From Microgenomates group bacterium (GTDB lineage Bacteria > Patescibacteriota > Microgenomatia > UBA10105 > UBA927): a stretch of 64,000 nucleotides of DNA. The stretch covers positions 575,041 to 639,040 of the forward strand of contig JBAQFJ010000001.1 of assembly GCA_049287205.1 (NCBI GenBank), in the 5' to 3' direction. The stretch's first letter is position 1. Each line of letters opens with the position of its first letter. Both the position numbers and the translations under genes were made by a program. The notes below the pieces were generated by a model. That model searched no databases, was not told the DNA's origin, and saw only the letters and a list, made by a program, of their open reading frames with translations. Below are positions 1 to 64,000 of this stretch, in pieces.

Positions 1-1594
1 AAATACCCACTAACTGATCAACGGAAATATCCTTATTTGTTTTAAATAATTCAACTAAATCTTTTTTATTCCAGTAGTATCCAAACCCCTTATTGCCAAT
101 TTCCTTGTATCCTTGATCAAAAAAATGCCATAGATAGCTTTCCTTAAAGAGTTCCTTCGGAATAACGGGATTAGACATGAACGTCAGGCTTAGCATATAT
201 CCTGTTCCTAATTGAAACGGTAACGGATTATTTGGGTAGAAAAAGTCTCTATCACCCTCAACATAGAATATTGGTTTGTTTGGAATCGTTGGATAAGACC
301 CTCGAATTGCTGACATTGCTATTTTGATACCACTTCCATAAAGAACATTCTGATTAATCTCTCTTTGCAACAGTGTTATTTGCTTATATAGAAAAACAGC
401 TAAAATTGAATAAACAACCATATATGCTATCACTCTGTTTTTCATTACTGTTTCAATCTTTATTCTCAGTGCTGTTAAGAAAAATCCAACCATCATGGCT
501 ACCGGAAAGAAAGAAAAATAGAGATATCGAGACTCCACATATGAAGTGTTTCTCTCATTCAGAAATACTGCCATCGGAACAAAACTTAGAATATACCAGC
601 AAAGAGAAAACAGCATGCCTTTCTGAAATGGCTTATGTTTTGCGTATATATATATCATGAAGATGATAAAACCAAAAGATAGAATAACGGATACCAGATC
701 ACCAACAAGTACACTGTTGATTGGATTATCCACAGCCACATTTTCCATAAACCCGTAGTTAAATTTTGAAAAAGCCGGCGCGATTCGTAACATAAAGCGC
801 AAAGGAACAAAAAACTGACCCAAAGAAACTAACGGATAAAACCCCATATTAAATAACGCCTTAGCAATCTTCAGCAGAGACTCACCGTTTTGAAGTTGAT
901 TCAAGGCAATGCCAAAAAACTGCAATATTTTATATCCACCAAGTATAAGTAAAGGGGTTAATATATATACATATTTTTTCCATTGAATACGTGGGGCTTT
1001 TACAGTTATAAAAGAGGGAAGCAATAAAAGTAATGGGAAAACAAAAAAACTGCTTTCTTTAAATAAAAATGCGATATAGGCAAATATCCACGCCACAATC
1101 TGCCACATTCTCTTTTTGTCTGTATAACCTTTCACTGATGCCAGTATTGATAAGAATACAAACGTCATACCGCCTAGGGTCTGCGTCGTCGCTGCAAACC
1201 AAGATATCGCCTGATTGGCTGTTGCGGGCACACTAAACACACAAGCCGTAATGAAGGCAATGTGATCATTTTTAGTTATCTTTTTTGCCACAAGGTATGC
1301 GAGATAACTATTTAATGTATGTATTACAAGTGTAAAAACAGCAAATGGAATTGCACTATCCTTAAAAAAATAGAAGGATATATTGTTTAGAATCCCACCC
1401 AAAAAACGTCCATTCCCCAACAAAATATCAAACAGGGTTTTACTGTGAGCATATCCAACCAAAATTCCATCTCCCTGTACCGCACCCAGTAGCAATAGCT
1501 CGTCGTTAAGAAAATATAGAGAAAAGACACGATAACAGGAAACACCCACAAGAAAAGCTAAAATAATGAATACTACCACATTAAGCTTTTTCAT
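1..1594 (-). CDS. 5'-complete, 3'-partial polytopic membrane protein with extracytoplasmic C-terminal region (runs off window start); not in ORF track
   Basis: Manual translation of the minus strand from ATG at 1592-1594 gives MKKLNVVVFIILAFLVGVSCYRVF... with no stop down to nt 1 (more than 530 codons). There are several hydrophobic helices, then a soluble region. The ATG overlaps the TGA of the 1591..2655 gene (ATGA junction). Confidence 0.6.
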   Translation of the reverse strand, partial: MKKLNVVVFIILAFLVGVSCYRVFSLYFLNDELLLLGAVQGDGILVGYAHSKTLFDILLGNGRFLGGILNNISFYFFKDSAIPFAVFTLVIHTLNSYLAYLVAKKITKNDHIAFITACVFSVPATANQAISWFAATTQTLGGMTFVFLSILASVKGYTDKKRMWQIVAWIFAYIAFLFKESSFFVFPLLLLLPSFITVKAPRIQWKKYVYILTPLLILGGYKILQFFGIALNQLQNGESLLKIAKALFNMGFYPLVSLGQFFVPLRFMLRIAPAFSKFNYGFMENVAVDNPINSVLVGDLVSVILSFGFIIFMIYIYAKHKPFQKGMLFSLCWYILSFVPMAVFLNERNTSYVESRYLYFSFFPVAMMVGFFLTALRIKIETVMKNRVIAYMVVYSILAVFLYKQITLLQREINQNVLYGSGIKIAMSAIRGSYPTIPNKPIFYVEGDRDFFYPNNPLPFQLGTGYMLSLTFMSNPVIPKELFKESYLWHFFDQGYKEIGNKGFGYYWNKKDLVELFKTNKDISVDQLVGI

Positions 1595-2655
1595 ATATAT
1601 CTAGATTTCTTTCTGTATGGTATCTCTTTCTCCTCATAGTCAAATGATCCCATTAAGAAAGATTGGTAATATCTATATGATGGGAAGCACATTATTTTGT
1701 TGATAAACTGATAATCGTTCGATACGCGTATTTTTTTCTGAATAGTTCCCCTCATTTTCAAAGTTCTTGATATATGATAAATATTCCACCATATCGCCCG
1801 ATGGATTGCCCACCAAATAGACATTTTTCCTTTTAATAACATAAACCACGCCATACAACATGATAAGAAGATATGGTACGGAACAATTTGCCATACCAAG
1901 CCGTTTCCTAAATTTTTACAATATGAATTTATTCTATTCTTAAATGAATGATATTGAATAAAAGCATTATTCATCGAGCTGCTTGTTGCACCCATTTTAT
2001 GGTACATAACGGATTTATACGCATATACGATTTTGTAACCTGCCAGCCATACCCGATGACACATATCCGTTTCTTCAAAATAGGCAAAGTATGAAGGATC
2101 AAGGATATTTCCTTCAACCTCCACTTTTTTCAAAACTGACATTTTAAACATCATACACGCACCCTTTGCTGTGTATAGATCAATTTGTTTATTATATTTC
2201 GGGGCATCTTTTGCGCCAAAACCATAATGATAGAGAAATCCAGTTGGAGTCAGAAACGCGCCGACGCTATCATGTGTATCAGGATGATCCATAAGAAGAA
2301 TCTTGCTTTGTGCACCGCCAATTGTCGGGCCGCTTTCAATGGCCGCCACAAGTTCAGTGAGAAAAGTTTTCGTAACCCGTGTATCATTATTCAAAAAAAG
2401 AACGTACTCGCCTTTTGCAACCTTGTACCCTACATTATTAGCATCAGAAAATCCTAAGTTTTCTTTATTGATGAGGATTTTTGTTTTCGGATAGTTCTGT
2501 TTCACCCAAGACACTGATTCGTCTTTTGAAGCGTTATCAACAAAGATGATTTCATAATTTTGATACTCTTGTCTGGCAAGACTTTCAAAACAATCAGATA
2601 GCCATCGAATACCGTTCCAATTGACGACAATAATAGAAATAAGTGCTTGCTTCAT
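1591..2655 (-). CDS. GT2 family glycosyltransferase (GT-A fold)
   Basis: N-terminal IIVVNWNG...FVDNASKDES and DxD-like LNNDT motifs typical of family 2 glycosyltransferases; 354 aa. Confidence 0.85.
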   Translation of the reverse strand: MKQALISIIVVNWNGIRWLSDCFESLARQEYQNYEIIFVDNASKDESVSWVKQNYPKTKILINKENLGFSDANNVGYKVAKGEYVLFLNNDTRVTKTFLTELVAAIESGPTIGGAQSKILLMDHPDTHDSVGAFLTPTGFLYHYGFGAKDAPKYNKQIDLYTAKGACMMFKMSVLKKVEVEGNILDPSYFAYFEETDMCHRVWLAGYKIVYAYKSVMYHKMGATSSSMNNAFIQYHSFKNRINSYCKNLGNGLVWQIVPYHIFLSCCMAWFMLLKGKMSIWWAIHRAIWWNIYHISRTLKMRGTIQKKIRVSNDYQFINKIMCFPSYRYYQSFLMGSFDYEEKEIPYRKKSRYI

Positions 2656-2663
2656 AACATTAT

Positions 2664-3509
2664 TTACATTCGAGAACTCACCATACCCGCTGCCAACGCA
2701 GTCATTTCCAGTGTCTTCATCACTAACATCCCCAATCCTACCATAGGACGTGCAAACAACACAGCGGGTTTTGAAAAATATAACCCATAGCGTGCGAATG
2801 GACTCCCTTGTTTCATTCCCAGAGTTACATTCTCCTGTTTTCTCAGATATTGAGCCATCTTTTTCCCGTAATAATATTTCTTCTTTAACGTCTTTCCAAG
2901 TGACAGCGCTCCTTCATTATGATGTATATATGAAGGTATTCTTCCAATTGCATCATCACCATACTTTGCTTTCACCCGTTGTGGAAGATCAAAATCCTCA
3001 GGACCTGTCAAATTTTCGTCATATCCGCCTACTGCGTTAAAACATTTCCTTCGATAAAATCTAGCCGCTTCTATCCAATCCACACCTTCATAAAACGAAC
3101 GCTCTAACGCTTTACACTTAGCCCAAAACCCTGAACCAATGGATTTTTCTGGTATGACCAGTGCTTCAATCGCTGCATTTTTTTGCATACAATTTACACA
3201 CTCATCGACCACCGGTGGAGTCAAAATCATATCCGCGTCCAAAAAAAGAAGGTATTCACTTTTGGCATTACGAGCCCCGAAGTTACGTTGTGCGGACCGC
3301 TCAGGGCCTTTATCATACACCAAAGCGCCATGCTGCTTTGCAAGCTGTTTTGTGTTGTCTGTTGATGCGTTATCAACAACTATCATCTCTATATCTTTAT
3401 ATTTCTGTTGTCGAATACTCTCCAGACAAGCCCCAAGATTTATTTCTTCGTTCCGAGTGGTGATTATTACAGAAACAGATTGGTTCATAAGATACGTATA
3501 TTGTAGCAA
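2664..3509 (-). CDS. GT2 family glycosyltransferase
   Basis: VSVIITTRNEEINLGACLESI...VVDNASTDNT and DADMIL motifs. Start may be the internal ATG at about 3488 (MNQSVSVII). Confidence 0.85.
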   Translation of the reverse strand: MLQYTYLMNQSVSVIITTRNEEINLGACLESIRQQKYKDIEMIVVDNASTDNTKQLAKQHGALVYDKGPERSAQRNFGARNAKSEYLLFLDADMILTPPVVDECVNCMQKNAAIEALVIPEKSIGSGFWAKCKALERSFYEGVDWIEAARFYRRKCFNAVGGYDENLTGPEDFDLPQRVKAKYGDDAIGRIPSYIHHNEGALSLGKTLKKKYYYGKKMAQYLRKQENVTLGMKQGSPFARYGLYFSKPAVLFARPMVGLGMLVMKTLEMTALAAGMVSSRM

Positions 3510-3562
3510 ACAAGCGTATATTCTTCTTGTAGAAGTTGTTTAAGGAACATATACTATCACTA

Positions 3563-4051
3563 ATGAAGTTAAAAATTATAATCATTCTCATACTATTAGG
3601 GCTTAATCCGCATACTGTTTTTGCTCAACGTTGTGCCCAAATTACGACAAAAGATAAAATACTGCTAAAGCTACACAGTCTTAAGGACGATATCTATCTT
3701 TTTTTACTAGCCGACGTAAATAAGCAAATCAAGTATCATCTGACAAAAGCAGACTCTCTTTATACGATTTCCTCAAACGCTGCGGATCCGTCTGTATCTT
3801 TTTCATTGTCTTTACAGGCTGAAAATCATATTACCCAGATACCGAAGTTGTTACAACATCTGCCTTCTACTCAATCGTTTGACATGAACGGATACGAAAA
3901 ACAGCAAGCCATCCATACATCAGTGATACGTCAAATGAAAAGTGAGTGTGAATGGAATATACTGTTGGGATTTATTGACAGCAATTACGAGACGATTAAA
4001 AAAATCTATGTGGTAAAGCTGCCGACGGATCAACAACGACTGCTGTATTAG
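3563..4051 (+). CDS. small secreted hypothetical protein (signal peptide)
   Basis: The ORF-track start at 3536 is TTG. ATG at 3563 gives MKLKIIIILILLGLNPHTVFA (signal-peptide-like), preceded by AAGGAA at 3542-3547. It is the only plus-strand gene in the first 27 kb. No recognisable domain. Confidence 0.5.
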   Translation: MKLKIIIILILLGLNPHTVFAQRCAQITTKDKILLKLHSLKDDIYLFLLADVNKQIKYHLTKADSLYTISSNAADPSVSFSLSLQAENHITQIPKLLQHLPSTQSFDMNGYEKQQAIHTSVIRQMKSECEWNILLGFIDSNYETIKKIYVVKLPTDQQRLLY

Positions 4052-6054
4052 TATTCAATAATTTTCACCGTTATATCTTCCCACTGACATGTACTTTTTT
4101 CTGGATTATATATACGTAAGTCCGTGATTCTTTCTCCGGTAAATAGATAGACATCACTCGCCCCTGGATAGAACGGCGTCTCATAATTAAAATATCCTGG
4201 TATTCCCCATGTGTTAAACCAAGTTCTCCCTCTGTCACCAGAGATATTCAGGATTGCGTTCTGTACGCGAAGTGCACATGCAGGATTATCGTAAGCAAAT
4301 TCAACTCTTTTAATAACGACAGTACTCGCAAAAGAAAATTGTATTGAATCGTCCACGTATTTTTTTTGATATGCAGACATATCCACTTCAGTTTCTACCG
4401 TCTGATCGACGTTTGTGTGTTGTTTGTCATTCTTCCAAATATAAAGCAACGGAACCCCATCCACCATAACGACATGTACAGGATCAAGAAAACGCAACGC
4501 ATACCGTATACGAAAATAATCGTTCACATTCATTCCTGGATATGCCAATTCCATAATATACTCACCCTGTTGTTCTGGAATTTTTGATTGATCACCCATA
4601 TAGTTGATGTCAGATCTCAAATAGGTATCAGGTATTGCAGATCGTATACCCATACCAAGAGATACAGTCGCGCCGGACTCAACATGATCATTAATCCAAC
4701 GTATACCCTGTTTATAGGCATTTCCATATGTGTTGTCCGAACCTTCTAAACCATACCTTATTGCTCCATTCAATCCTCCTATTAACCCGTTGAAGTACAC
4801 ATTTTCATTCGGATGAATCTGAATCATTTTAACAATCACAAATGAATAGGAAAAAAACACACAAACTATAAGTAAACGTTTGAAATAACGTTTAGTCAAA
4901 CTTCCATACAGAACTGATATTCCAACTCCAGATAGAAGTGTCAGCGGCGCCATATATTCCATAATCTGACGAAGACTTCCTCCATAAAGAACCATGATTG
5001 GAAGTGTCGCCCTTCCTAGGGTTACTAGCAACCACAGTATCCATAACAAAAAGACATTATTTTTTCTCGCCAGGTTACGCCAGCCAAACACCGCGCCAAA
5101 TATAAATAATAGTAGGGTTACCAGTGGCATAGTCATCACAAATAGTAACGGCGTCCTCCAATCTGAGCATTGTTGAACCCAATATATTGATAATGGAGGA
5201 AATATACACTCTCTGGAGGAACCCGATATACCTTGATAATATTTAATAACTTCTATAGTTTTTTGTAGTGGGCTCGACCAAAGAGCAGGGTATGTATAAA
5301 CAAATATGGCATATGTGACTATCGGTATTATTAGCAAAGATAGTATAATAATTTTTCTTAACTTTTTGTCTTCCCAAAATTTCAGCGAGATAAACCAAAA
5401 CACGATTGGAAATAGCGAGAAAATAATATTAAACTTTGTTCCGAGAGAAAGCCCAAAAAATACAGCGGAAATTATAACTGACCAAATCTTTTTATATTCA
5501 ACGGTGATCCAAAGAAAGAATAATGCACCGGTATAATAAGACAGAATGAGAGGATCCTTGATATTAAAATGTTGTTCTGCAAACAGGTGTGGTAACGTTC
5601 CAAACGCTAGTACGGTAAAAAATGACGCTACCGGTCCAAAAGTCAGGTACGACCAGACACCTAGCATGATCATAGTAAGAATAGTCATCAAAACGACAAA
5701 TAAATGATGACTCTCGATATCGCCGACAAGTCCAAATTTACCCCATACGATTCTATTGGTGGCCGCCATGAGAATGTCTGATACAGGCGGATGTCCGATG
5801 GTCATTTGCTGCGCCCACTCAAACGTTAACGGTGTTTTCTGGTAATAACTTAATCTTTCTTCACTACCTACCGGCGGCGGGTCAGTTTTTCCCTGTGTGA
5901 TATAGCGAAGATATATATGTCCTCTGGCAAGATGCTGAAATGAGTCCCAATTTACCCCGTAAGAGGGCAATGTTTTAATAGAAAAAAACGCAAAAACCAC
6001 GATCACAATACCCGTAGGAATCCATCGTAATTTCATATCTTTTGCATTCTGCAA
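4048..6054 (-). CDS. large polytopic membrane protein with about 250-aa C-terminal extracytoplasmic domain; putative GT-C type glycosyltransferase
   Basis: 668 aa. N-terminal half has many hydrophobic segments (GVNWDSFQHLARGHIYLRY...). The C-terminal third is hydrophilic and beta-rich. Family not recognised. Confidence 0.5.
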   Translation of the reverse strand: MQNAKDMKLRWIPTGIVIVVFAFFSIKTLPSYGVNWDSFQHLARGHIYLRYITQGKTDPPPVGSEERLSYYQKTPLTFEWAQQMTIGHPPVSDILMAATNRIVWGKFGLVGDIESHHLFVVLMTILTMIMLGVWSYLTFGPVASFFTVLAFGTLPHLFAEQHFNIKDPLILSYYTGALFFLWITVEYKKIWSVIISAVFFGLSLGTKFNIIFSLFPIVFWFISLKFWEDKKLRKIIILSLLIIPIVTYAIFVYTYPALWSSPLQKTIEVIKYYQGISGSSRECIFPPLSIYWVQQCSDWRTPLLFVMTMPLVTLLLFIFGAVFGWRNLARKNNVFLLWILWLLVTLGRATLPIMVLYGGSLRQIMEYMAPLTLLSGVGISVLYGSLTKRYFKRLLIVCVFFSYSFVIVKMIQIHPNENVYFNGLIGGLNGAIRYGLEGSDNTYGNAYKQGIRWINDHVESGATVSLGMGIRSAIPDTYLRSDINYMGDQSKIPEQQGEYIMELAYPGMNVNDYFRIRYALRFLDPVHVVMVDGVPLLYIWKNDKQHTNVDQTVETEVDMSAYQKKYVDDSIQFSFASTVVIKRVEFAYDNPACALRVQNAILNISGDRGRTWFNTWGIPGYFNYETPFYPGASDVYLFTGERITDLRIYNPEKSTCQWEDITVKIIEY

Positions 6055-6743
6055 AATATATTAGTAAATCCTGAAGACGTCTTATATTCCCTATCTAATT
6101 TCTTAGTTATAACATTTTCAAAAAACGGAGCTCTTTGAAATACCCATTTTGATATATATAAATCCAACAAGCTAATAATTTCCCACCATCCACCCATAAT
6201 TCGCAGGTCATGAATCTTAAATCTGGTCTTGGCTAATTTCCTGATACGATCACTTGAATAATGACGATGTCCAATTAACCAAAACGCGGGATCAAATAGT
6301 GTTCCAAAAAGAGATCTGTGCGGTGTTGAAAGGTAGCATATTCCATCTTTTTTTAACACCCGAGCGATCTCTGAAAACATTTTTTCTTCTGTACCTTTCG
6401 GTATATGTTCAATTACCTCCCAAGATACAACCGTATCAAAGGTGTTGTCTTTAAATGGCAAGTCTATCGCACTCCCCTTAAGGAAAACTATTTTCTTTTC
6501 GCGAATATATTTTTTCGCGGTACTAAGGTCATTTTCCGTCAACTCAGTCCCGACAATAGATGAGACCAAATTATTCTGCGCATACACTTCAAACCAGCCA
6601 TACCCACATCCGATATCTAAAATTTTTTTATTTTTTATATCCTGAAGATTAACGTATTCAGTAACAAACTTTACTCTTCCGTGAAGAGAATCATACGGAG
6701 TTTGATGGGTAATATTTTTCATATTATTGTTCGTTATAAACAA
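6033..6743 (-). CDS. class I SAM-dependent methyltransferase
   Basis: ILDIGCGYGWF (motif I, GxGxG), DTVVSWEVIEHI and KKDGICYLSTP motifs of Methyltransf_11-type MTases. Embedded between membrane GT-C genes. Confidence 0.8.
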   Translation of the reverse strand: MFITNNNMKNITHQTPYDSLHGRVKFVTEYVNLQDIKNKKILDIGCGYGWFEVYAQNNLVSSIVGTELTENDLSTAKKYIREKKIVFLKGSAIDLPFKDNTFDTVVSWEVIEHIPKGTEEKMFSEIARVLKKDGICYLSTPHRSLFGTLFDPAFWLIGHRHYSSDRIRKLAKTRFKIHDLRIMGGWWEIISLLDLYISKWVFQRAPFFENVITKKLDREYKTSSGFTNIFCRMQKI

Positions 6744-8061
6744 GTATTGTCCAGATGGTGAGAAGTACTATTGCTATACAAATTGCGATATTGATCAAAC
6801 GAAACACCTTTTTGTTTGCAAGTTTCGAGAAAATTCCAGGAAGTGCGCCAACTGCTACTGTTATAAGGTATATACGAAATACCGGATAGGAAAATCCGAG
6901 AACTCTTCCCCAACTACTTGCAAACATTGATAGTCCAATGACAACAAATGACAATGCTGTTACCAGATAGTTTTTGTTCAAATACTCTTTAAAAAATGCC
7001 GCGACAGCTATCGCTAAAAACGGATAGAACGGATACCTGTACCATCCGTGAAGCGGTTCACTTGGAATTGCAAAGACAAAGATTGCCATATAGGCAAGAA
7101 ACCCAAATAGGATAGGTAACTGTTTTTTGACATCCTTCACCAATAATAAAACTATCGCCGCCCATCCAAAATATATCCACCCATCAACCAGTGCCCTATC
7201 AGCGATGATCGGGTCACGAAAAAGTATAAACAGACTATCAAACGCCATATCATACCTTGCAAGCTGCAGTTTCCAAAGATTAGTAAACAACGTCGCATCT
7301 GTTGTGTACCCGTAAACAAGCCAAACGCCAAGTCCTGTGACCGTTGCTAGTACAACCCAAAATGCCGCTTTCCATTTTTTGGAAAACAAAAATATTCCGA
7401 TAACTGCAAGTGGTGCTGCAATCCACGGCATTTTTGCAAGAGGAAGCAGTCCGCAAAGAAGTGCCGTCAACCCTAAATTCAAGGTAATCAATTTTTTATT
7501 TTTGGCTGTTCTTTCGATATATTTGTATGCAAAATACAATGCGAAAAGAAACAAGGGTATAAAGAAATTTTCATTCTGCACAAGCCGTGAACCGATAACG
7601 ACGGTCGGAAGAATCGCATATATTCCCGAGGCAGCCAGTCCAACAACATTCCCATACACTGCACTTGTGAGTACAAACACGGCAACTATCGAAATCACAC
7701 CCATAATGAGTGCGAGCGGCCGTATTTTTGCGATCGTCACATCATCAAATGTTTGTACACCCTGCATCTTCGCAAACGCCCCTGCAACAATTCCAAACAG
7801 CGGGGGATGCTCTAGATAAGGACTCACAAGAGTGAAACGTGCTCCCTGTGGGTTAAAATATTCAATCTTGTTTACATACGCAGCATGCGGTGACCAAGAC
7901 ACGGGGGTACCGGAATTCAAGATGCTTATTCCCTGAAAAGTCCACGCAAACTCATCAAATGTTGCGCCTTCTCGTGGCCAAACGTTTACATTATAGGAAC
8001 GGAGCATCCCTCCAACGATAAGAATGATTAATAATACACTGTATGTTATCCAACGTCTCAT
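6724..8061 (-). CDS. polytopic membrane protein, ArnT/PMT-like (GT-C) with FDEFAW loop motif
   Basis: 445 aa, about 11 hydrophobic helices. N-terminal periplasmic loop carries FDEFAWTFQGISILNSG (Asp-Glu motif as in PMT_2/ArnT-like glycosyltransferases). Confidence 0.55.
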   Translation of the reverse strand: MRRWITYSVLLIILIVGGMLRSYNVNVWPREGATFDEFAWTFQGISILNSGTPVSWSPHAAYVNKIEYFNPQGARFTLVSPYLEHPPLFGIVAGAFAKMQGVQTFDDVTIAKIRPLALIMGVISIVAVFVLTSAVYGNVVGLAASGIYAILPTVVIGSRLVQNENFFIPLFLFALYFAYKYIERTAKNKKLITLNLGLTALLCGLLPLAKMPWIAAPLAVIGIFLFSKKWKAAFWVVLATVTGLGVWLVYGYTTDATLFTNLWKLQLARYDMAFDSLFILFRDPIIADRALVDGWIYFGWAAIVLLLVKDVKKQLPILFGFLAYMAIFVFAIPSEPLHGWYRYPFYPFLAIAVAAFFKEYLNKNYLVTALSFVVIGLSMFASSWGRVLGFSYPVFRIYLITVAVGALPGIFSKLANKKVFRLINIAICIAIVLLTIWTILVYNEQ

Positions 8062-56740: not shown

Positions 56741-57756
56741 TTCTGTTTTCCTCCGTATTGTTTCTTATAATACGATTGATATGCGCCGGTTTTAATATCC
56801 TGCCACCACTTTTTATTTTCCTGATACCACACGACTGTTTTTTCAAGCCAATTATCAAATCCATACTGTGGTTTCCACCCGAGCTCAGTAGTAATTTTTG
56901 TTGAGTCAATCGCATATCGCCTGTCATGACCGAGCCTGTCTTTGACAAATTCGATGAGTGTTTCATCCCGTCCCATGATGGTAAGTATTTTTTTCACCAC
57001 ATCAAAATTTGAGATATCTTCAGCAACGCCTCCCACACAATACGTTTCACCGATACGCCCCTTGGTAAGAACCAGATCAATAGCCCTACAATGATCTTCA
57101 ACATAGAGCCAATCTCTGACATTTAATCCGTCTCCATACACAGGAACTTTTTTTCCTTCAAGAATATTGGTGATTGTAAGCGGAATAAATTTTTCCGGGA
57201 ATTGAAACGGTCCATAATTATTTGAACAATTCGTTATCGTAATCGGCAAGCCGTAGGTATCGTGATACGCTCTGACGATATGATCTGACCCCGCTTTGCT
57301 TGCAGAATACGGACTATGCGGATTATATGTCGTCTTCTCATCAAACTTTGTACCACTTCCAAGCTCCAGTGATCCGAATACCTCATCGGTCGATACATGA
57401 TGAAACCGTTTAACAGACAGCTGTACAGCTGCTTCAAGAAGCACCTGTGTACCTAACACGTTTGTCTTTATAAAAGGGGAGGCATCAAGAATGGAACGGT
57501 CAACGTGGCTTTCTGCAGCAAAATGTACCGCTGTATCACAACCCGTCATGGCTTTTTGTACTTCTGTTTGATTACAAATATCGCCTTTCACAAAATGATA
57601 GTTCGGATTTGTTTCGACGCTTTTCAGATTTTCCAGATTTCCTGCATAGGTCAAGGCGTCAAAATTAACAACACTATCTTCCGGATGCTCACGCATCCAA
57701 TACAAAATAAAGTTAGAACCGATAAATCCTGCACCGCCTGTTACAAATAGTTTCAT
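56737..57756 (-). CDS. rmlB: dTDP-glucose 4,6-dehydratase
   Basis: MKLFVTGGAGFIGSNFILYWMREHPEDSVVNFDALTYAGNLENL, YSASKAGSDHIVRAY (YxxxK), 339 aa. This is the classic RfbB signature. Confidence 0.9.
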   Translation of the reverse strand: MKLFVTGGAGFIGSNFILYWMREHPEDSVVNFDALTYAGNLENLKSVETNPNYHFVKGDICNQTEVQKAMTGCDTAVHFAAESHVDRSILDASPFIKTNVLGTQVLLEAAVQLSVKRFHHVSTDEVFGSLELGSGTKFDEKTTYNPHSPYSASKAGSDHIVRAYHDTYGLPITITNCSNNYGPFQFPEKFIPLTITNILEGKKVPVYGDGLNVRDWLYVEDHCRAIDLVLTKGRIGETYCVGGVAEDISNFDVVKKILTIMGRDETLIEFVKDRLGHDRRYAIDSTKITTELGWKPQYGFDNWLEKTVVWYQENKKWWQDIKTGAYQSYYKKQYGGKQK

Positions 57757-57762: not shown

Positions 57763-58236
57763 TTAGGTAATTTTGGTATTGGTAATTGGTTTTCCCTGCA
57801 CCCAGTCATACCCGATATTTGAATCATCGTACTGAATTCTGCCTTCTTCTTTTGGATCATATGTTTTACTGGTTGCATATACAAAATCACACGGGCCTTC
57901 CAAAACCTTCATGCCGTGTGCGACACCTGCAGGAATTTTGAGTACAATATTATCCGGCTCCTCACCTAACACAAATTCCATTGTTTCCCCTTTTGTTGGA
58001 GACCCCTCACGAGTGTCATAGAGTGCTGCTTTAATTTTTCCTTTTACGCAGAACCACCAGTCAATCTGTGTCGTATGCAGATGCCATGCTTTGACAACTC
58101 CTTCCACCATGAATGAATGAGAAAGTTGTCCAAACCCTTCAGCAAAAAATTCATCCGTATTTCTGATAATTTCTTCAAAATATCCCCGTTCGTCGGGATG
58201 CCTCACCAATTTTTTTATCATCACGCCGTCAATCAT
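57763..58236 (-). CDS. rmlC: dTDP-4-dehydrorhamnose 3,5-epimerase-like cupin (RmlC-like; could alternatively be a FdtA-type 3,4-ketoisomerase)
   Basis: 157-aa cupin with HPDERGYFEEI and KAWHLHTTQ (cf. RGLHFQ) motifs, between rmlA and rmlB. It is shorter than the canonical RmlC. Confidence 0.55.
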   Translation of the reverse strand: MIDGVMIKKLVRHPDERGYFEEIIRNTDEFFAEGFGQLSHSFMVEGVVKAWHLHTTQIDWWFCVKGKIKAALYDTREGSPTKGETMEFVLGEEPDNIVLKIPAGVAHGMKVLEGPCDFVYATSKTYDPKEEGRIQYDDSNIGYDWVQGKPITNTKIT

Positions 58237-58970
58237 AGTGATCCTTTCTTCATTTTTTCAGCAACCTGATTATTTGCACGCAATAGTTCATCATAGGACG
58301 TTCCTGCATCCACCCACCAATCAATGATTTCGCACGTCAAATTTCCATCACGAAGGTACATATTATTCAAATCCGTGACTTCGAGTTCACCTCTTTTGGA
58401 AGGTGACAATTTTTTAATGTACTCAAATACTTTTTTGTCATATATATAAATTCCTGTCTGTGCGATATCTGATTTTGGATTTTCCGGTTTTTCTTCGATA
58501 GACAATACTTTTCCGGTAGCATCCACTTCAATAACACCGTAGTGTTTTGCATCCATATGCATATGAATACCGAACACTTTTGCGCCTACCCCCTGTTTTT
58601 CAAAAGATTCAACTGCCGGCCGCAAATCATGATCAAAAATATTATCTCCAAGGATAACCATCAATGGTTCATCATGAGTAAACTCTTCAGCGAGTGCAAT
58701 GGCGTCGGCAATTCCGCCTTTCGGATTATTTTGTACACCGTAATACAAACGCATACCAAATTCTTCACCGGAGGTTAACAGATTGGCAAACTGCGCAATC
58801 GATTCTCCACCCGTTGTCAACAATACCTCTTTCACGCCAGCGCGCTGCATCGCCTCAATAGGGTAATAAATCATCGGTTTGTTATACACTGGCAACAGAT
58901 GCTTGTTTGTCACAAGCGTCAACGGACGAAGTCGTGTTGCTAAACCTCCCGCAAGTATTAAGCCCTGCAT
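58233..58970 (-). CDS. rmlA: glucose-1-phosphate thymidylyltransferase (short form)
   Basis: MQGLILAGGLATRLRPLTLVTNKHLLPVYNKPMIYYPIE N-terminal signature; 245 aa; AAGGAG RBS at 58976..58981 (minus strand). Confidence 0.85.
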   Translation of the reverse strand: MQGLILAGGLATRLRPLTLVTNKHLLPVYNKPMIYYPIEAMQRAGVKEVLLTTGGESIAQFANLLTSGEEFGMRLYYGVQNNPKGGIADAIALAEEFTHDEPLMVILGDNIFDHDLRPAVESFEKQGVGAKVFGIHMHMDAKHYGVIEVDATGKVLSIEEKPENPKSDIAQTGIYIYDKKVFEYIKKLSPSKRGELEVTDLNNMYLRDGNLTCEIIDWWVDAGTSYDELLRANNQVAEKMKKGSL

Positions 58971-59013
58971 ATGTACTACTCCTTTCCCTGTAATAAGGAA
59001 ACTATTATTTTTG

Positions 59014-59262
59014 TTATGTCCACAGTATTGTTAAAAGCAATACAACTGCAACTGCACCAACAAGACAATATTCTATCACAACTTTTGGATGAAGATCTTC
59101 TTCAAGGCTGTGATAGATAATTCCCCAAATGACATAAGAGATTGCTGTGGCAACCCCGATGTACATTTGCATCACCTTATCGTTTGCAGCTCCCCAAAAC
59201 GTCCAAACACCCGTTACCAGGATAATCAGAAGTACCAGATAATTCACATGCGTTAATTTCAT
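59014..59262 (-). CDS. small two-helix membrane protein (hypothetical)
   Basis: 82 aa with two hydrophobic segments; 4-nt overlap with the upstream CAP-domain gene. Confidence 0.45.
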   Translation of the reverse strand: MKLTHVNYLVLLIILVTGVWTFWGAANDKVMQMYIGVATAISYVIWGIIYHSLEEDLHPKVVIEYCLVGAVAVVLLLTILWT

Positions 59263-60288: not shown

Positions 60289-60624
60289 CTACTTCCACTT
60301 ATCTTGTTCGTAGGGGATTTCGATTGGCTCATTTGCCGAATTTCCGTTGACAGGAATGTTGAGCAGATATCCGAGTGTTTGAGCTATTGTCACACCGACG
60401 CGACGTCCGGTAAATGAACCTTGATCTACAAGTACGGTTATGTCTTGAATGTCGGAAACTGAATCACCATGCTTTTTTAGTGCCAAATCAATAAAAGGAA
60501 GAATTACCTGAGAATGGGATGTCATTTCTTCATTCACGAGGGATTCCGTATATCCATTGCCAACCACTGTTATGTTTGTTTTTTTGGCGTCCCGTGAATC
60601 GATCGTCAAATGGAGCGTTTTCAT
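60289..60624 (-). CDS. tsaB: truncated TsaB (YeaZ) - N-terminal half only
   Basis: From ATG at 60624: MKTLHLTIDSRD...ILPFIDLALKKHGDSVSDIQDITVLVDQGSFTGRRVGVTIAQTLGYLLNIPV matches the TsaB N-terminal domain (GPGSFTG.R.G). It ends after about 111 aa. There is a 4-nt overlap with tsaC. Confidence 0.7.
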   Translation of the reverse strand: MKTLHLTIDSRDAKKTNITVVGNGYTESLVNEEMTSHSQVILPFIDLALKKHGDSVSDIQDITVLVDQGSFTGRRVGVTIAQTLGYLLNIPVNGNSANEPIEIPYEQDKWK

Positions 60625-61241
60625 AGTATAACCGCTCCCTGACGAATAATACGATATGGCGTTACTGTACAATCCACAACTGTTGAAACAGTACCGATAG
60701 GACACACTCCCGGAACAACAAAATCAACCTGGCTCGTCAATTTCGGATTCAAATCTTCAAAGCGATATGGTGTGGGTTCACCGTGAAAATTTGCTGAAGG
60801 CCCAACGATTGGTATCTTTACTCCGTCTAAAATTCTCTGGAGCGTCTCATGTTTCGGATGCCGCATACCAACCGTATCACCGTCCCCGCAAATAGGGGAG
60901 TATATCAATTCTTTTTTACACATATCCACTATGGTCAATGCTCCCGGCCAATATATTTTCATAAGACGTCGTACAATATCTGACGAATGTTGATAAAAGG
61001 GGAACGCAGCCTCCATATTTGGCACCAGTACAGGCAATGCCTGCGTTGCGGGTCTTTTCCGAATTTTAAATAACCTATCAATGGATTCAGGCTTATCAAT
61101 CCTGCAACCGATTCCAAATGCGGTGTCTGTCGGAAAAATAATAATTCCTCCCGCATTCACAGTGGCAATTGCTTTTTGAATTTGTTCATCAATTGGTACC
61201 ATAGGTAATTTCAATCCTCCGTTCGGATTCAGAAGCGCCAT
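60621..61241 (-). CDS. tsaC: L-threonylcarbamoyladenylate synthase (YrdC-domain, TsaC type)
   Basis: AGGIIIFPTDTAFGIGC...KIRKRP...ALPVLV...WPGALTIV YrdC/Sua5 motifs; 206 aa (no Sua5 C-terminal domain). Confidence 0.8.
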   Translation of the reverse strand: MALLNPNGGLKLPMVPIDEQIQKAIATVNAGGIIIFPTDTAFGIGCRIDKPESIDRLFKIRKRPATQALPVLVPNMEAAFPFYQHSSDIVRRLMKIYWPGALTIVDMCKKELIYSPICGDGDTVGMRHPKHETLQRILDGVKIPIVGPSANFHGEPTPYRFEDLNPKLTSQVDFVVPGVCPIGTVSTVVDCTVTPYRIIRQGAVIL

Positions 61242-61653
61242 GGGTAAACCGAAAGTCTATTCGTTTCTCCGGCAAAAGCCTACCGAGCCGCTCAGCCCAC
61301 TCAATGATCACAATATTTTTCTCATCGTTAAACATTTCCTGTATTCCTAATTCTTGTATACTTTGTTCACTCGTTAACCGATAGAGATCCAGATGGAAAA
61401 AGAACCTGTCAATATTGGACAATTGTTGACGTCGTACAATAATGAAAGTAGGCGAGAGCAGGCGAGAGGTGAGGCCTAATCCCTTCGCAACCCCCTGAAC
61501 AAACGTGGTCTTCCCCATTCCTAAATCACCGTACAAACAGATAATATGCGGTGAGTTTTTACTCCCCTTTTGTATCAGGCGATCTGCCAACTTTTCGCCA
61601 AGTTTTTGAGTTTCTTCGGCATTTTTGGTAATAGTAATTTCAGACTTATCCAT
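61189..61653 (-). CDS. tsaE: tRNA t6A biosynthesis ATPase TsaE (YjeE)
   Basis: ICLYGDLGMGKTTFVQGVAKGLGL Walker A and the TsaE-typical N-terminal ETQKLGEKLA; 154 aa. Confidence 0.8.
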   Translation of the reverse strand: MDKSEITITKNAEETQKLGEKLADRLIQKGSKNSPHIICLYGDLGMGKTTFVQGVAKGLGLTSRLLSPTFIIVRRQQLSNIDRFFFHLDLYRLTSEQSIQELGIQEMFNDEKNIVIIEWAERLGRLLPEKRIDFRFTHGASESERRIEITYGTN

Positions 61654-61985
61654 GCGAACATTGCTCCAAACATGTCAATTATAGCATCACGCGGCTTCCC
61701 TTCACGCGTTGGAACGTAGGACTGATGCAATTCATCAGTTATTGCAAATAATACAGTAATGCAAAAAGGTAGCAACCAAATCCAGCTTTTTTGCATACCC
61801 AATGTATTTTTTACCGCCCTGTACGTGACCACATATAAAAACGCATATTCGATAAGATGCAGTGTCTTAAAAAACATAAAACTCAAAACATAAGAATCGG
61901 TGACAGCAATCTTTTGCCGTGCAGAGAATGCAAAAATCACTCCCATCCAGATTATAACCGGCAACCAGAAGCGCACCTGTTTCAT
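61575..61985 (-). CDS. VanZ-like family membrane protein
   Basis: 136 aa, 4 helices, ITDELHQSYVPTREGKPRDAIIDMFGAMFAW (DE.HQ..VP.R...D VanZ signature). The C-terminus overlaps the tsaE start by 79 nt out of frame. Confidence 0.65.
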   Translation of the reverse strand: MKQVRFWLPVIIWMGVIFAFSARQKIAVTDSYVLSFMFFKTLHLIEYAFLYVVTYRAVKNTLGMQKSWIWLLPFCITVLFAITDELHQSYVPTREGKPRDAIIDMFGAMFAWISLKLLLPKMPKKLKNLAKSWQIA

Positions 61986-62806
61986 ATGTCTTTAGTATAG
62001 CGAATTTTAATAACTGATACAGCAGCAAGAAGAGAAAGCCCAATACCGACAAACAATAATGCAATAATATAGGGTCGTTTCTCGGACAACATATCCATGC
62101 TCCCTGAAGCATTCTTTTGAGTTTCATTTGTCTGACCAAGTACAGTACCAGATGGTGCCATTTCATCAACAACCGTTACCTGTGAAAGAATTTGCACAAA
62201 GGATGTCGGTTTACTGGATGGGTTTATTGGTGTCGGCGTTGTTATCAAAACCGTTGATACAGCAGGGGTGTTGGTTGGACCTTTGGCAGGAGTTGGCGTC
62301 ACTGTCGGTGTTACTGTCGGTGCCATTGTTGCAGTGGGCAGTATCGGTGAGAATGATAAATAATTTGCAGATTGAAAACTTGTTCCGCACGCATCATTTA
62401 CCTGCAAACAGCCCCTGAGAAATAATAGTTTTATCTCATCGACAGCGGATGTCTTAATACGGCATGGAAGCGCACCCCTCCAAGATCCGTCATTTTGTAT
62501 CATAACTTGCGGCATATCAATCCAGGCGCTTGTATCATCTAACCATTTTTCTGTTGTTGTGTTATATGTCTGCCCCTCTGTCAAACTTGAACTTGTTTGA
62601 CCTATGCGACACTTAAGATAATACACTGCACCAGTCATTCCTCCGCTTGCGGTCGCCTGTACAGCAAAGGTATCACCAATGATTGGACTGGCCGAATCAA
62701 TTTCTAACGGAGTAAACACGACACCAGAAACGGCGAATGAAATAGGGATACGAAAGAAAAAGAAATAAACTACCACGCCAACGATTGTTGGAATTCGGGC
62801 AGACAT
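61982..62806 (-). CDS. membrane-anchored surface protein with Pro/Thr-rich linker (hypothetical)
   Basis: N-terminal signal-anchor, a globular region of about 130 aa, a PTATMAPTVTPTVTPTPAKGPTNTPAVSTVLITTPTPINPSSKPTS linker, and a C-terminal hydrophobic helix followed by a basic tail (KIRYTKDI). Confidence 0.5.
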   Translation of the reverse strand: MSARIPTIVGVVVYFFFFRIPISFAVSGVVFTPLEIDSASPIIGDTFAVQATASGGMTGAVYYLKCRIGQTSSSLTEGQTYNTTTEKWLDDTSAWIDMPQVMIQNDGSWRGALPCRIKTSAVDEIKLLFLRGCLQVNDACGTSFQSANYLSFSPILPTATMAPTVTPTVTPTPAKGPTNTPAVSTVLITTPTPINPSSKPTSFVQILSQVTVVDEMAPSGTVLGQTNETQKNASGSMDMLSEKRPYIIALLFVGIGLSLLAAVSVIKIRYTKDI

Positions 62807-62824
62807 AGTGTTATGTACTGTTCG

Positions 62825-63991
62825 TCAGTTATAGTTGACATGGAGATAATATGTCATAATTCCTCCATCTTTATGTTCAAGTCTTACATACTGCAAACGG
62901 CAATTTCCGGAATAAAAACCGCGATACACCGTACCATCCTGAACCGCTTTCACATCTAATGAAGATCCATCAATATCAATACCGTTGTGGGTTGGATACG
63001 GCCGGTACATTCTGACATACCAGGTATTCCCATACCCTTGGTTTAATTGTATCTGTGGCGCGATTGGCCAATCCCAACTGCCTGACGGATTAAACGCATC
63101 ACCTCCCGAGTCATTTACATGATCAACAGATTTTAAATAATTGAACGGATTTTCCGTTATGCCGTTTTTACTCACGGTAAAATGGAGATGCGTACCGGTG
63201 GAATTACACGATGAGCCGGAAATAACTGAGGCAATTTTATCTCCTTTTTTCACTTCCCCTACTTTTACCTCTGAACCGCCTCCCGCAATAATTCCCTGTA
63301 TTTGTTGATACTCAGCGCGTGCAGCCGCGAGCAGATTTTGAAAAATAGATTCCTGCCCTTTTGTCTGAGCAAGCAACATATCTTTATCCTGCTTTTGCTG
63401 CGCCAGTTGTTTATTTTTGTATTCGAGTTCTTTTTCCGCTTCCACTTGTTTTTGTTTCTTTTCTTCACGCTGCGTTTTCCTTTCGGCATAGTTGTTCTGT
63501 GTTGCTTTGTATTGCACAAATAACTTAAGATCCTGCTGTTGTACTTTTTTAATGTATTGAATTCTGGCAACCAAATCGCCGATATCTTTACTGAACATCA
63601 ATGACGTAAAATCACTTGACTTCACATATTCTTTATAAGATTCAGGTACGCGTTTTTGTAACAGCTCCGTCTGTTTTGTTAATTTAGTTTCCAGAATTTC
63701 CACTTCACCCGCAAGTTGATTGATTTCTGCAGTAAGGTTTGCGATAAATCCCTTGACACTCTGAATTTGAAATGTGGTCAGTTGAATTTGATTATTCAAA
63801 TAACTGATTTGTGAAGAAAGAGTATTTTTAGTATTTTGACAACTGTCTACCACTTGCTGATAACAGGTGACGGACTCTTCAACTGATTTTCCTTTGCAGG
63901 GATCGGACGAAGTACAATCAACGGCAAAAACAGGCAACTGCAACAACAGCGAGATGCAAAGCGTACAGATGATGACGACTATTCTCTTCAT
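62825..63991 (-). CDS. M23 family peptidoglycan metalloendopeptidase with N-terminal coiled coil (EnvC-like)
   Basis: Signal peptide, Cys-rich segment, and a long heptad-like Q/K/E-rich region. C-terminal LytM domain with GTHLHFTV (HxH) and DIDGS...GTVYRG motifs. Confidence 0.8.
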   Translation of the reverse strand: MKRIVVIICTLCISLLLQLPVFAVDCTSSDPCKGKSVEESVTCYQQVVDSCQNTKNTLSSQISYLNNQIQLTTFQIQSVKGFIANLTAEINQLAGEVEILETKLTKQTELLQKRVPESYKEYVKSSDFTSLMFSKDIGDLVARIQYIKKVQQQDLKLFVQYKATQNNYAERKTQREEKKQKQVEAEKELEYKNKQLAQQKQDKDMLLAQTKGQESIFQNLLAAARAEYQQIQGIIAGGGSEVKVGEVKKGDKIASVISGSSCNSTGTHLHFTVSKNGITENPFNYLKSVDHVNDSGGDAFNPSGSWDWPIAPQIQLNQGYGNTWYVRMYRPYPTHNGIDIDGSSLDVKAVQDGTVYRGFYSGNCRLQYVRLEHKDGGIMTYYLHVNYN

Positions 63992-64000
63992 GCATGACTT

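Follow-up and report, generated by a model that had tools for sequence, protein, structure and literature searches.

A glycosyltransferase-dense, operon-like candidate surface-glycan island in a Microgenomates group bacterium

The stretch of DNA considered here, hereafter the window, comprises 64,000 nucleotides of a Microgenomates group bacterium (contig JBAQFJ010000001.1 of assembly GCA_049287205.1, positions 575,041 to 639,040) and is largely occupied by a candidate cell-surface glycan island rich in predicted membrane-embedded glycosyltransferases (GTs) of the GT-C fold. An initial annotation, made from the letters of the window, had likened it to islands of the Candidate Phyla Radiation (CPR, or Patescibacteria), and this origin proved correct. 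Six-frame calling of open reading frames (ORFs) gives 55 genes, rather than the 57 first counted, at a coding density of about 100%; 52 of the 55 lie on the minus strand, and g4, g24 and g26 are the only ones on the plus strand. The genes are packed as tightly as first described, with stop and start codons overlapping at 32 of the 48 same-strand junctions (11 of them by exactly 4 nt) and gaps of no more than 25 nt at a further 11. The sole same-strand gap longer than 70 nt measures 288 nt (58971-59258) and is located directly upstream of rmlA (g48) and, because this is the only long gap, we place the start of the island at rmlA and read it leftwards through g1. The gap would thus represent the upstream boundary and promoter region, in which a promoter scan found a single weak sigma-70-like site on the minus strand, not above shuffled expectation, and an Rfam scan found no RNA families. 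From rmlA (58,970) to the left edge the island extends for about 59 kb and continues beyond; hence, of the co-directional island of approximately 55 kb proposed at first, the nearly uniform orientation holds and the length must be enlarged, to at least about 69 kb in total, or about 6.8% of the 1.02-Mb contig. Shared direction, frequent overlap and the one long gap (288 nt) at the head of the genes suggest an operon-like organization.

Enzyme families were assigned by a Pfam scan of all 55 window proteins, paralogy by comparison of these proteins with one another and transmembrane (TM) topology by simple hydropathy prediction; all gene functions given below are therefore predictions from homology or modelled structure. 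The genes from the left edge of the window to the head of the island are the following (bits are Pfam scores unless otherwise stated; L005, L009 and L010 are contigs of relatives).

g1 (WAV51_02885), 1-1594, minus strand: GT-C, PMT/GT39-like; C-terminus past the left edge, full length 557 aa
g2, 1591-2655, minus: ordinary soluble GT2; PF00535 93 bits; best NCBIfam matches are exopolysaccharide (EPS)/WcaA-type GT2
g3, 2664-3509, minus: soluble GT2; PF00535 97 bits
g4, 3536-4051, plus: small protein with predicted N-terminal signal or TM segment; no Pfam match; 89% identical orthologue in L005
g5, 4048-6054, minus: GT-C (PMT_2); PF13231 29.4 bits against a cutoff of 26.1; predicted 255-aa C-terminal extracytoplasmic domain
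g6, 6033-6743, minus: S-adenosylmethionine (SAM)-dependent methyltransferase; PF08241 75.8 bits
g7, 6724-8061, minus: GT-C (PMT_2); PF13231 41.5 bits
g8, 8071-9189, minus: GT4 (GT-B); PF00534 119 bits; allele replaced in close relatives
g9, 9186-9977, minus: DPM1/GtrB/ArnC-like GT2 without TM helices; NCBIfam best PgfS, PpgS, ArnC; PDB best 5MLZ, ArnC, GtrB
g10, 9974-11233, minus: divergent MOP flippase, about 12 TM helices; PF13440 35.9 and PF01943 28.9 bits
g11, 11284-11964, minus: DPM1/AglJ-like GT2; PF00535 119 bits; PDB best 5MLZ, E=2e-20
g12 (WAV51_02940), 11961-13055, minus: GT-C, PIG-V/Gpi18-like; homologues with PF04188
g13, 13030-14085, minus: GT4; PF00534 109 bits
g14, 14082-15683, minus: GT-C (PTPS_related/YfhO-like group); weak YfhO match; paralogue of g19, g36 and g37 (E=1e-37 to 1e-77)
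g15, 15667-16788, minus: GT-C (MptA/B or GT87-like); paralogue of g39 (E=1e-47); orthologues with PF26314 MptA_B
g16, 16785-17930, minus: GT-C (PMT_2); PF13231 38.3 bits; absent at this position in L009 and L010
g17, 17915-18502, minus: small protein with predicted N-terminal signal or TM segment; DUF5667 (PF18915) 23.4 bits, below cutoff
g18, 18499-19272, minus: soluble GT2 of the g18/g31/g33 paralogue group; PF00535 71.6 bits
g19, 19254-20912, minus: GT-C (PTPS_related-like group); no Pfam match; paralogue of g14 (E=8e-77), g37 and g36
g20, 20918-22552, minus: GT-C (PMT_2); PF13231 36.9 bits
g21, 22539-24185, minus: GT-C (PMT); PF02366 30.4 bits against a cutoff of 22.7
g22, 24182-25468, minus: GT-C (GT87); PF09594 25.5 bits against a cutoff of 25
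g23, 25509-26984, minus: GT-C (PMT_2-like); PF13231 19.3 bits, sub-threshold; paralogue of g41 (E=1e-46)
g24, 27037-29439, plus: GT-C (YfhO), 800 aa; PF09586 114.6 bits
g25 (WAV51_03005), 29449-31008, minus: GT-C by predicted structure, CPR-restricted family without Pfam model
g26, 31065-32810, plus: GT-C (PMT group); no Pfam match; paralogue of g20 and g21 (E=1e-17 to 1e-19 over about 520 aa)
g27, 32820-33728, minus: GT2 with one C-terminal TM helix at 268-286; PF00535 78.8 bits
g28, 33732-35996, minus: GT-C (YfhO); PF09586 63.4 bits
g29, 35987-37054, minus: GT4; PF00534 71.8 bits
g30, 37030-39369, minus: GT-C (YfhO); PF09586 80.2 bits
g31, 39342-40103, minus: soluble GT2; PF00535 78.4 bits
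g32, 40069-40998, minus: soluble GT2; PF13641 60.6 bits; rhamnosyltransferase/GlfT1-like NCBIfam matches
g33, 40995-41921, minus: soluble GT2; PF00535 91.2 bits; PDB best GmaR, E=7e-18
g34, 41905-43350, minus: Wzx-like MOP flippase; PF13440 (Polysacc_synt_3) 185.7 bits
g35, 43337-44101, minus: DPM1/GtrB/ArnC-like GT2; PF00535 72 bits; NCBIfam best PgfS, ArnC, dolichyl phosphate (Dol-P)-hexose transferase
g36, 44064-45797, minus: GT-C (PTPS_related); PF10131 34.5 bits against a cutoff of 26.4
g37, 45742-47295, minus: GT-C (PTPS_related-like group); paralogue of g19 (E=4e-56), g14 and g36
g38, 47310-48833, minus: GT-C (PMT_2); PF13231 59.4 bits
g39, 48868-50046, minus: GT-C (GT87/MptA_B-like); PF09594 21.6 bits, sub-threshold; paralogue of g15
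g40, 50046-50804, minus: DPM1/GtrB/ArnC-like GT2; PF00535 101 bits; PDB best 5MLZ, ArnC, GtrB
g41, 50808-52349, minus: GT-C (PMT_2/PMT); PF13231 40 and PF02366 28.2 bits
g42, 52356-53528, minus: polyprenol-phosphate glycosyltransferase with a fused GtrA/DPMS four-TM domain; PF00535 and PF04138
g43, 53510-54469, minus: short-chain dehydrogenase/reductase (SDR), GDP-6-deoxy-D-lyxo-4-hexulose reductase (RMD)-like; PDB 2PK3, E=1.5e-89
g44, 54535-55833, minus: UDP-glucose 6-dehydrogenase; three UDPG_MGDP_dh Pfam domains; TIGR03026 436 bits, above cutoff
g45, 55856-56740, minus: RmlD; PF04321 162.6 bits
g46, 56737-57756, minus: RmlB-like 4,6-dehydratase; PF16363 282 bits
g47, 57763-58236, minus: RmlC; PF00908 94.9 bits
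g48, 58233-58970, minus: RmlA, first gene of the island; PF00483 193.6 bits
Intergenic gap, 58971-59258, 288 nt: probable upstream boundary and promoter region of the island

The 22 GT-C membrane proteins counted at the outset all have evidence for this fold, graded from hidden Markov model (HMM) matches through paralogy and homologue domains to predicted structure. Twelve of them pass the Pfam gathering score (g5, g7, g16, g20, g38 and g41 for PMT_2; g21 for PMT; g22 for GT87; g24, g28 and g30 for YfhO; g36 for PTPS_related), and these are families that we take to be grouped in the GT-C clan. In three others (g14, g23 and g39) a sub-threshold match is accompanied by paralogy to a passing member, and four are assigned by paralogy only: g19 and g37 to g14/g36, g26 to g20/g21 and g15 to g39. 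The remaining three are placed through the domains of homologues (g12), through homologue domains together with a predicted structure (g1) and through a predicted structure only (g25). All 22 polytopic proteins are predicted to have 7-10 TM helices, and the first loop after TM1 is 50-120 aa long in 19 of them and 12-37 aa in g15, g22 and g39; an acidic (D/E) motif just after TM1 is found in most, as is a C-terminal soluble domain. Families and topology are therefore those of GT-C enzymes, and the alternative that the polytopic proteins are mostly transporters finds no support. At least seven GT-C families are represented: PMT/PMT_2, GT87/MptA_B, PIG-V-like, YfhO, PTPS_related, the g1 family and the g25 family.

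For g1, g12 and g25, Pfam and NCBIfam searches at permissive E-values gave nothing usable, and other evidence was brought to bear. Homologues of g1 carry PF13231 and residue D31 is invariant in the family. In g12, whose true start at 13055 (364 aa) agrees with the NCBI model WAV51_02940, the first loop contains an invariant N46-x-D48-G49, and PF04188, a domain of PIG-V/Gpi18-like mannosyltransferases, is present in about half of the 120 homologues listed. The predicted structures of g1 and g25 adopt the GT-C fold, their structural matches including ALG12, ALG9, ALG3, ALG6 and Pmt1/2/4, and also the non-transferase PIG-U/GAB1. Profile-profile comparison of the g25 family gave a probability of 73% against the g1 family and 28% against the g12 family, values that are only suggestive, and its profile found no match among PDB sequences. 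This family is, according to the model, a confidently predicted CPR-restricted GT-C family outside Pfam; it forms 430 clusters at 50% identity, with neither a Pfam model nor a PDB sequence relative, and conserves an FGCFDDC stretch after TM1 in which G35 is nearly invariant and D38/D39 are invariant. Its informatively named members all belong to the CPR (Levy-, Gottesman-, Roizman- and Woesebacteria). Many GTDB records carrying g25 homologues (e.g., L011, L012, L017 and L018) bear the title "uncultured Gammaproteobacteria bacterium," which we take as a placeholder or mislabel because every informatively named relative is CPR.

The soluble complement consists of the 15 GT-A/GT-B enzymes originally reported, which Pfam divides into 12 GT2 (g2, g3, g9, g11, g18, g27, g31, g32, g33, g35, g40 and g42) and three GT4 (g8, g13 and g29). 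Five of the GT2, one more than first recognized, belong to the DPM1/GtrB/ArnC clade of putative polyprenol-phosphate-sugar synthases: g42 aligns end to end with the Dol-P-mannose (Man) synthase of Pyrococcus furiosus (5MLZ, E=1.3e-39); g9, g11 and g40 have 5MLZ, ArnC and GtrB as top solved relatives; and g35 is assigned by its NCBIfam pattern and its paralogy to g40 and g42. Among NCBIfam models, they match PgfS, PpgS, ArnC, Dol-P-hexose transferase and AglJ best. The other seven GT2 resemble ordinary cytoplasmic enzymes (EpsD, WcaA, rhamnosyltransferase, GlfT1), and g33, used as a control, finds GmaR and then SunS in the PDB, not Dol-P-Man synthase. The GmaR in question is the flagellin O-GlcNAc transferase of Listeria, and SunS is a peptide S-glycosyltransferase; the subgroup of g33 and its paralogues g18 and g31 might, to judge from these sequence relatives, glycosylate proteins directly in the cytoplasm.

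Both flippases of the initial annotation are recovered, g10 as a weak match and g34 as a strong one that also aligns full length with the "O-glycosylation flippase" and MOP models of NCBIfam (111 bits each). The two MOP genes adjoin genes for DPM1-like GT2 (g9-g10-g11 and g34-g35), and several GT-C genes lie next to a synthase as well: g41 adjoins g42, g39 and g41 flank g40, g36 adjoins g35 and g12 adjoins g11. The GtrA domain (PF04138) occurs only at the C-terminus of g42 and, at a coding density near 100%, no stand-alone GtrA ORF fits. The sugar genes comprise rmlABCD, the UDP-glucose dehydrogenase g44, which also matches the AglM model (360 bits), and the RMD-like reductase g43, to which the single SAM methyltransferase g6 can be added. 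The order g44-g43-g42-g41 was considered as an Arn-like module (Ugd, decarboxylase, ArnC, ArnT) and set aside: g43 is RMD-like and matches UXS/ArnA-like enzymes only at E=1e-19, and the window contains no ArnB-type aminotransferase. Membership in the Arn pathway of lipid A modification with 4-amino-4-deoxy-L-arabinose (L-Ara4N) was thus discarded, neither an ArnA-type decarboxylase nor an aminotransferase having been found.

The reading that we favor, with slightly better than even confidence, is that of a cell-surface glycan island working mainly by multi-component transmembrane glycosylation. Nucleotide sugars would be provided by g43 to g48, which by homology point to dTDP-L-rhamnose (rmlABCD), UDP-glucuronate and probably GDP-D-rhamnose. 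The proteins g9, g11, g35, g40 and g42, placed in their family by sequence, would transfer single sugars to polyprenol phosphate on the cytoplasmic side of the membrane, and the GtrA/DPMS domain fused to g42 would flip the lipid-linked sugars; the MOP flippases probably flip polyprenol-phosphate sugars too, because they are encoded directly beside g9, g11 and g35. On the outer face, the proteins for which the GT-C fold has been established, at least 22 and 23 with a paralogue to the left of the window, would each add a sugar to a growing extracytoplasmic acceptor, the nature of donor and acceptor being what we propose here. In parallel, the seven ordinary GT2 and the three GT4 would build one or more lipid-linked oligosaccharides for export by g34. 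The most likely product is a heteroglycan of complex structure that differs between strains and is attached to a surface protein or a lipid anchor, and candidate acceptors are Ser/Thr-rich surface proteins (e.g., the Pro/Thr linker of g54, described below) or a membrane-anchored lipoglycan. Chemistry of this kind, in which polyprenol-phosphate sugars feed GT-C enzymes, holds for the mycobacterial network that makes lipomannan (LM), lipoarabinomannan (LAM) and arabinogalactan (AG) and for the ALG enzymes of the endoplasmic reticulum (ER), the proteins recovered here as structural neighbors of g1 and g25. Experiments on CsbB/GtcA/YfhO and similar systems have established the three-component mechanism (PMC5836110, PMC8035078). 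Of the stepwise extracytoplasmic glycosylation first suggested for the island, the supply of GT-C enzymes by polyprenol-phosphate sugars is well grounded (g42 against 5MLZ); a purely extracytoplasmic process is not, given the ten soluble GT2/GT4 and the Wzx-like g34, which imply that lipid-linked oligosaccharides are also assembled in the cytoplasm and exported.

Several considerations speak against this interpretation. The GT-C fold also covers users of polyprenol-diphosphate oligosaccharides (PglB/STT3) and non-transferases (PIG-U/GAB1) and is therefore, by itself, no proof of a polyprenol-phosphate-monosaccharide donor. All the DPM1-like GT2 score below the curated NCBIfam cutoffs, so that their sugars cannot be named, and a single GtrA-type domain would have to serve five synthases. 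Furthermore, the putative single transcription unit is deduced from gene spacing, and any sugars, lipid carrier and acceptor named here are candidates. Finally, ten soluble GTs with a Wzx-like flippase normally imply a pathway on undecaprenyl diphosphate (Und-PP) primed by a phosphoglycosyltransferase (PGT), and no such primer was found near the island.

The island could be followed beyond the window. One Logan contig from the same population (L004, 3.4 kb) opens on the last 22 residues of g1, beyond which three further genes follow to the left, namely a 557-aa paralogue of g1 (WAV51_02880, 61% identical, the 23rd GT-C), a GT4 and the start of a DegT-like aminotransferase. In relatives represented by ENA and JGI contigs, which are syntenic across g11 to g1 and whose g1 is 93% (L005) or 69% (L006 and L007) identical, the left 10 kb encode the g1 paralogue, a GT4, DegT, a DUF268 methyltransferase, a GT2, an SDR, a GT4, a GT2 and a GT4-like protein. 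A more distant relative (L008) adds a further 10 kb with a nucleotidyltransferase, SDRs, a NeuB-cupin protein, a thiamine diphosphate (TPP) enzyme, a haloacid dehalogenase (HAD) hydrolase and methyltransferases. In this contig a NeuB-cupin fusion stands beside the TPP-dependent enzyme, the HAD hydrolase and an FkbM methyltransferase (12487-15695), a block that suggests synthesis of an unusual sugar, e.g., a nonulosonic-acid-like or branched one.

These contigs also bear on whether the island could be an artefact, that is, a chimeric or collapsed metagenome assembly or a set of decaying pseudogene copies. The source is metagenome-assembled and many of the genes are paralogous, as such an explanation would have it. 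However, the sequence at the left end of the window (about 420-5,200) recurs in three independent assemblies from Logan, which makes an assembly artefact unlikely, L004 as a fourth extends it leftward, and the contigs of the relatives are syntenic with it. The paralogues are only 22-39% identical, so that collapse or duplication by the assembler is not plausible; all ORFs are intact and, for 20 pairs of orthologues (window against L005 or L010), the ratio of nonsynonymous to synonymous divergence (dN/dS) is 0.03-0.19, indicating purifying selection on genes that are kept functional. We consequently give an artefact next to no credence.

The same comparisons show that the island varies at strain level. 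Along its length dS ranges from 0.32 to saturated in the 20 pairs. The g8 protein is 65% identical in L005, where its neighbors are about 90% identical, and the low identity together with the saturated dS indicates allelic replacement by recombination; across L005, L009 and L010 its orthologues are 63-65% identical amid values of mostly 76-94%. Similarly, g15 and g17 are 46-60% identical where their neighbors are at about 85%. The small g4 protein is conserved inside the island. L009 and L010 have no g16 at its position and carry instead an extra PTPS_related GT-C and an extra epimerase, and L005, L009 and L010 diverge from one another in the cassettes located downstream of g7. L005 and L010 come from two related strains and are contigs of a single ENA sample (ERZ27297473) that share the g11-to-g7 block, followed by a methyltransferase and a PMT_2 protein in L005 and by a GT2, a nucleotidyltransferase and an SDR in L010. 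Such mosaic gene content is a pattern typical of surface-glycan loci and, combined with purifying selection, the differences between close relatives fit a surface structure important for interaction with hosts or phages.

As reported initially, the 55 window proteins include no PGT, Wzy or Wzz. Pfam finds no match to PF00953 (MraY/WecA) or PF02397 (WbaP/PglC) among them, none to Wzy_C, EpsG, Wzz/PCP or LCP, although Wzy is so divergent that absence of an HMM match is no proof, and none to ABC_tran or ABC2_membrane, the families that export of the Wzm/Wzt or TagGH type would require. A regular-expression search found the WWDxG motif of STT3/AglB/PglB in none of the 55 proteins, and the faint match of g19 to an archaeal STT3 model reaches only 16.8 bits where the cutoff is 450. 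The possibility that a PGT and Wzy/Wzz lie just outside the window was followed up in the relatives: none occurs in the approximately 10 kb past the left edge in L005, L006 and L007, nor does a PGT in the further 10 kb of L008. In 1.5 Mb around g25-family genes from 80 CPR genomes, a scan run without a positive control found no ORF of at least 120 aa with both motifs of either PGT type, and a single one-motif match, in L084, looks spurious.

One way to account for the soluble enzymes is that several conventional Und-PP, Wzx-dependent polysaccharide or teichoic-like cassettes lie side by side, primed by a PGT encoded elsewhere, with divergent GT-C-like proteins acting as polymerase or ligase and the rest as decorating enzymes. 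The gene order is suggestive of this in two places, g8-g13 (GT4, GT2, Wzx, GT2, polytopic protein, GT4) and g31-g35 (four GT2 around Wzx); g34 matches Wzx models over its full length, and the DegT aminotransferase, SDR and methyltransferase of the left flank in relatives are typical of O-antigen-like loci. PGTs are, moreover, commonly encoded away from the glycan locus, as is wecA. Wzy, however, has no convincing counterpart here: besides the lack of Wzy_C, EpsG, Wzz/PCP and LCP matches, the only positional candidate is g12, between a GT4 and a GT2 and near Wzx, and it was rejected in this role because its homologues are PIG-V/Gpi18-like (PF04188). In addition, 22 GT-C proteins against two flippases are not what the decoration of one or two polymers needs, and we consider this organization possible but rather unlikely.

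If no PGT is involved, the island may instead follow an archaeal Agl-like route, in which an AglJ-like GT2 (g11, or g9/g35/g40) would prime polyprenol monophosphate, soluble GT2/GT4 would extend the chain, MOP flippases would act as AglR/Agl15 do and GT-C enzymes would transfer the glycan and finish it with residues derived from polyprenol-phosphate sugars. In Haloferax, in fact, AglJ, AglG, AglI and AglE build a tetrasaccharide on Dol-P, AglR takes part in Dol-P-Man flipping and the GT-C enzyme AglS adds the last mannose (PMC3871713), a precedent for four sugars assembled on this carrier. The best NCBIfam match of g11 is AglJ (121 bits against a cutoff of 325), g44 scores 360 bits with AglM, the window also encodes the SAM methyltransferase g6 and, beside DPM1-like GT2, Wzx-like flippases, and PGT motifs were missing from every region scanned. 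On the other hand, no window protein has the STT3/AglB-type motif, the Agl-model scores all fall well short of the curated cutoffs, at least MraY must be encoded in the remainder of the 1.02-Mb genome and the wider motif scan had no positive control. Such a route, taken as a whole, appears unlikely to us; the data cannot separate a PGT encoded elsewhere that primes an Und-PP route from an AglJ-like GT2 that primes polyprenol monophosphate.

To the right of the island follow housekeeping and envelope genes that do not belong to it, encoding a CAP-domain protein, TsaB, Sua5, TsaE, VanZ, a Pro/Thr-rich membrane protein and an M23 peptidase. The genes g50-g53 (60289-61985) correspond to a TsaB-like ORF (138 aa, with a partial TsaD-family match), Sua5, TsaE and VanZ; as longest ORFs they overlap by 53-85 nt, and their true start codons are probably further downstream. 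The last three genes, g53 (VanZ), g54 and g55 (61575-63991), match the "patescibacterial VanZ-2 operon" of the lipocone paper (PMC12419801); g54 is a membrane protein of 274 aa whose Pro/Thr-rich linker has S, T or P at 26 of the 40 positions 163-202, a plausible target of O-glycosylation, and g55 is a coiled-coil M23/PcsB-like peptidase.

A further alternative is that the island is mainly a protein O-glycosylation machine, in which PMT-like GT-C enzymes would each attach mannose or other sugars to different Ser/Thr-rich secreted proteins (S-layer, pilins, adhesins), in the manner of actinobacterial Pmt and Ppm1. Eleven proteins are tied to PMT or PMT_2: eight directly (g5, g7, g16, g20, g21, g23, g38 and g41), g26 through its paralogues, g1 through homologues and fold, and g30 through a weak match alongside that to YfhO; g54 with its linker lies just outside the island and the flagellin transferase GmaR is the best PDB match of g33. 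PMT_2 is nevertheless a broad family that includes ArnT-like lipid and glycan transferases, no MIR domain was matched, and known cases of GT87, PIG-V-like and YfhO enzymes act on glycolipids or polymers; as an account of the whole island we find it very doubtful, and we retain multi-component transmembrane glycosylation as the preferred reading.

The recurrence of such islands was assessed in g25-family loci (L011-L090) from 80 other CPR species representatives, GT-C proteins being detected by phmmer with the window's own proteins, so that the counts are lower bounds. Among 36 loci of at least 20 kb, 27 have the g25-like gene as the only detectable GT-C and seven have 7-10 GT-C per approximately 21 kb, compared with 7.4 per 21.5 kb in the window; two shorter loci (L044 and L089) have 8-10. 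GT-C-dense islands are therefore recurrent in part of the lineage and not unique to this genome.

CPR bacteria are thought to live attached to host cells, and their surface chemistry is essentially unknown. The island consists entirely of components with known folds or families and follows a known reaction logic; what is unusual is how many components there are and how densely they are packed. Our literature search found no paper on GT-C-dominated islands in CPR, and the nearest published remark concerns a Parcubacterium genome with 20 glycosyltransferases and rmlABCD (PMC5220378). Not described in the literature searched are the gathering of at least 23 GT-C proteins, from at least seven families, into a single co-directional locus of a 1-Mb genome, the presence of five DPM1-like synthases, the use of MOP rather than stand-alone GtrA flippases and the lack of PGT, Wzy and Wzz in or near the island. 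The suggestion that the system is undescribed is thus sustained as regards scale and literature, and not as regards enzyme families and chemistry, which are known, or GT-C-dense neighborhoods, which recur in Microgenomates-type genomes. This compact set of five putative polyprenol-phosphate-sugar synthases, at least 22 GT-C proteins of at least seven families and two MOP flippases raises the question of whether a bacterial glycan can be assembled on polyprenol monophosphate without a PGT, as in haloarchaea. The furthest-reaching form of this idea, which we regard as quite unlikely, is that surface glycans are made with no dedicated PGT by a DPM1/AglJ-like start, MOP flipping and at least 23 GT-C enzymes including the g25 family, with strain-to-strain diversification serving host attachment or phage evasion; if true, a CPR bacterium would possess a glycosylation assembly line resembling that of the ER lumen or of archaea.

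Among known systems, GtrA/GtrB/Gtr*, CsbB/GtcA/YfhO of lipoteichoic acid (LTA) and ArnC/ArnEF/ArnT have in common a GT2 polyprenol-phosphate-sugar synthase, a flippase and a GT-C acting outside (PMC5836110, PMC8035078), and the island resembles them in possessing YfhO, PMT_2 (ArnT-like) and a GtrA/DPMS domain. Those systems place a single decoration on a known polymer by means of one synthase, one small flippase and one GT-C, whereas the island has five synthases, at least 22 GT-C proteins of at least seven families and MOP flippases with no stand-alone GtrA. The mycobacterial and corynebacterial LM/LAM/AG network (Ppm1, PimE, MptA/B/C, AftA-D, EmbA-C and Pmt) has its genes scattered over a genome of 3-4 Mb or more, unlike the single co-directional locus of a 1-Mb genome found here, in which neither a phosphatidylinositol start of the PimA/PimB type nor the arabinose-donor genes DprE/UbiA were seen.

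The Agl N-glycosylation clusters of Haloferax volcanii share with the island an AglJ-like GT2, soluble GTs, Wzx-like AglR/Agl15, UDP-glucose dehydrogenase (AglM), a methyltransferase (AglP), a Dol-P-Man-dependent GT-C (AglS), clustering of the genes and the lack of a PGT (PMC3871713). The island differs from them in its bacterial host, its far larger number of GT-C enzymes, the absence of the AglB/STT3 motif and Agl scores that remain sub-threshold. Stepwise GT-C additions from Dol-P-sugars are likewise common to the ALG, DPM1 and PMT enzymes of the eukaryotic ER lumen, from which the structural matches ALG12, ALG9, ALG3, ALG6 and Pmt1/2/4 derive; sequence identity is only 8-13%, and the island lacks an ALG7-type primer and an oligosaccharyltransferase (OST). 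Lastly, Wzx/Wzy loci for O-antigen or capsule resemble the island in their Wzx-like flippase, soluble GT2 and GT4, nucleotide-diphosphate (NDP)-sugar genes at one end and mosaic, strain-variable content; in the island, by contrast, no PGT, Wzy or Wzz/PCP is detected, and GT-C proteins outnumber all other classes.

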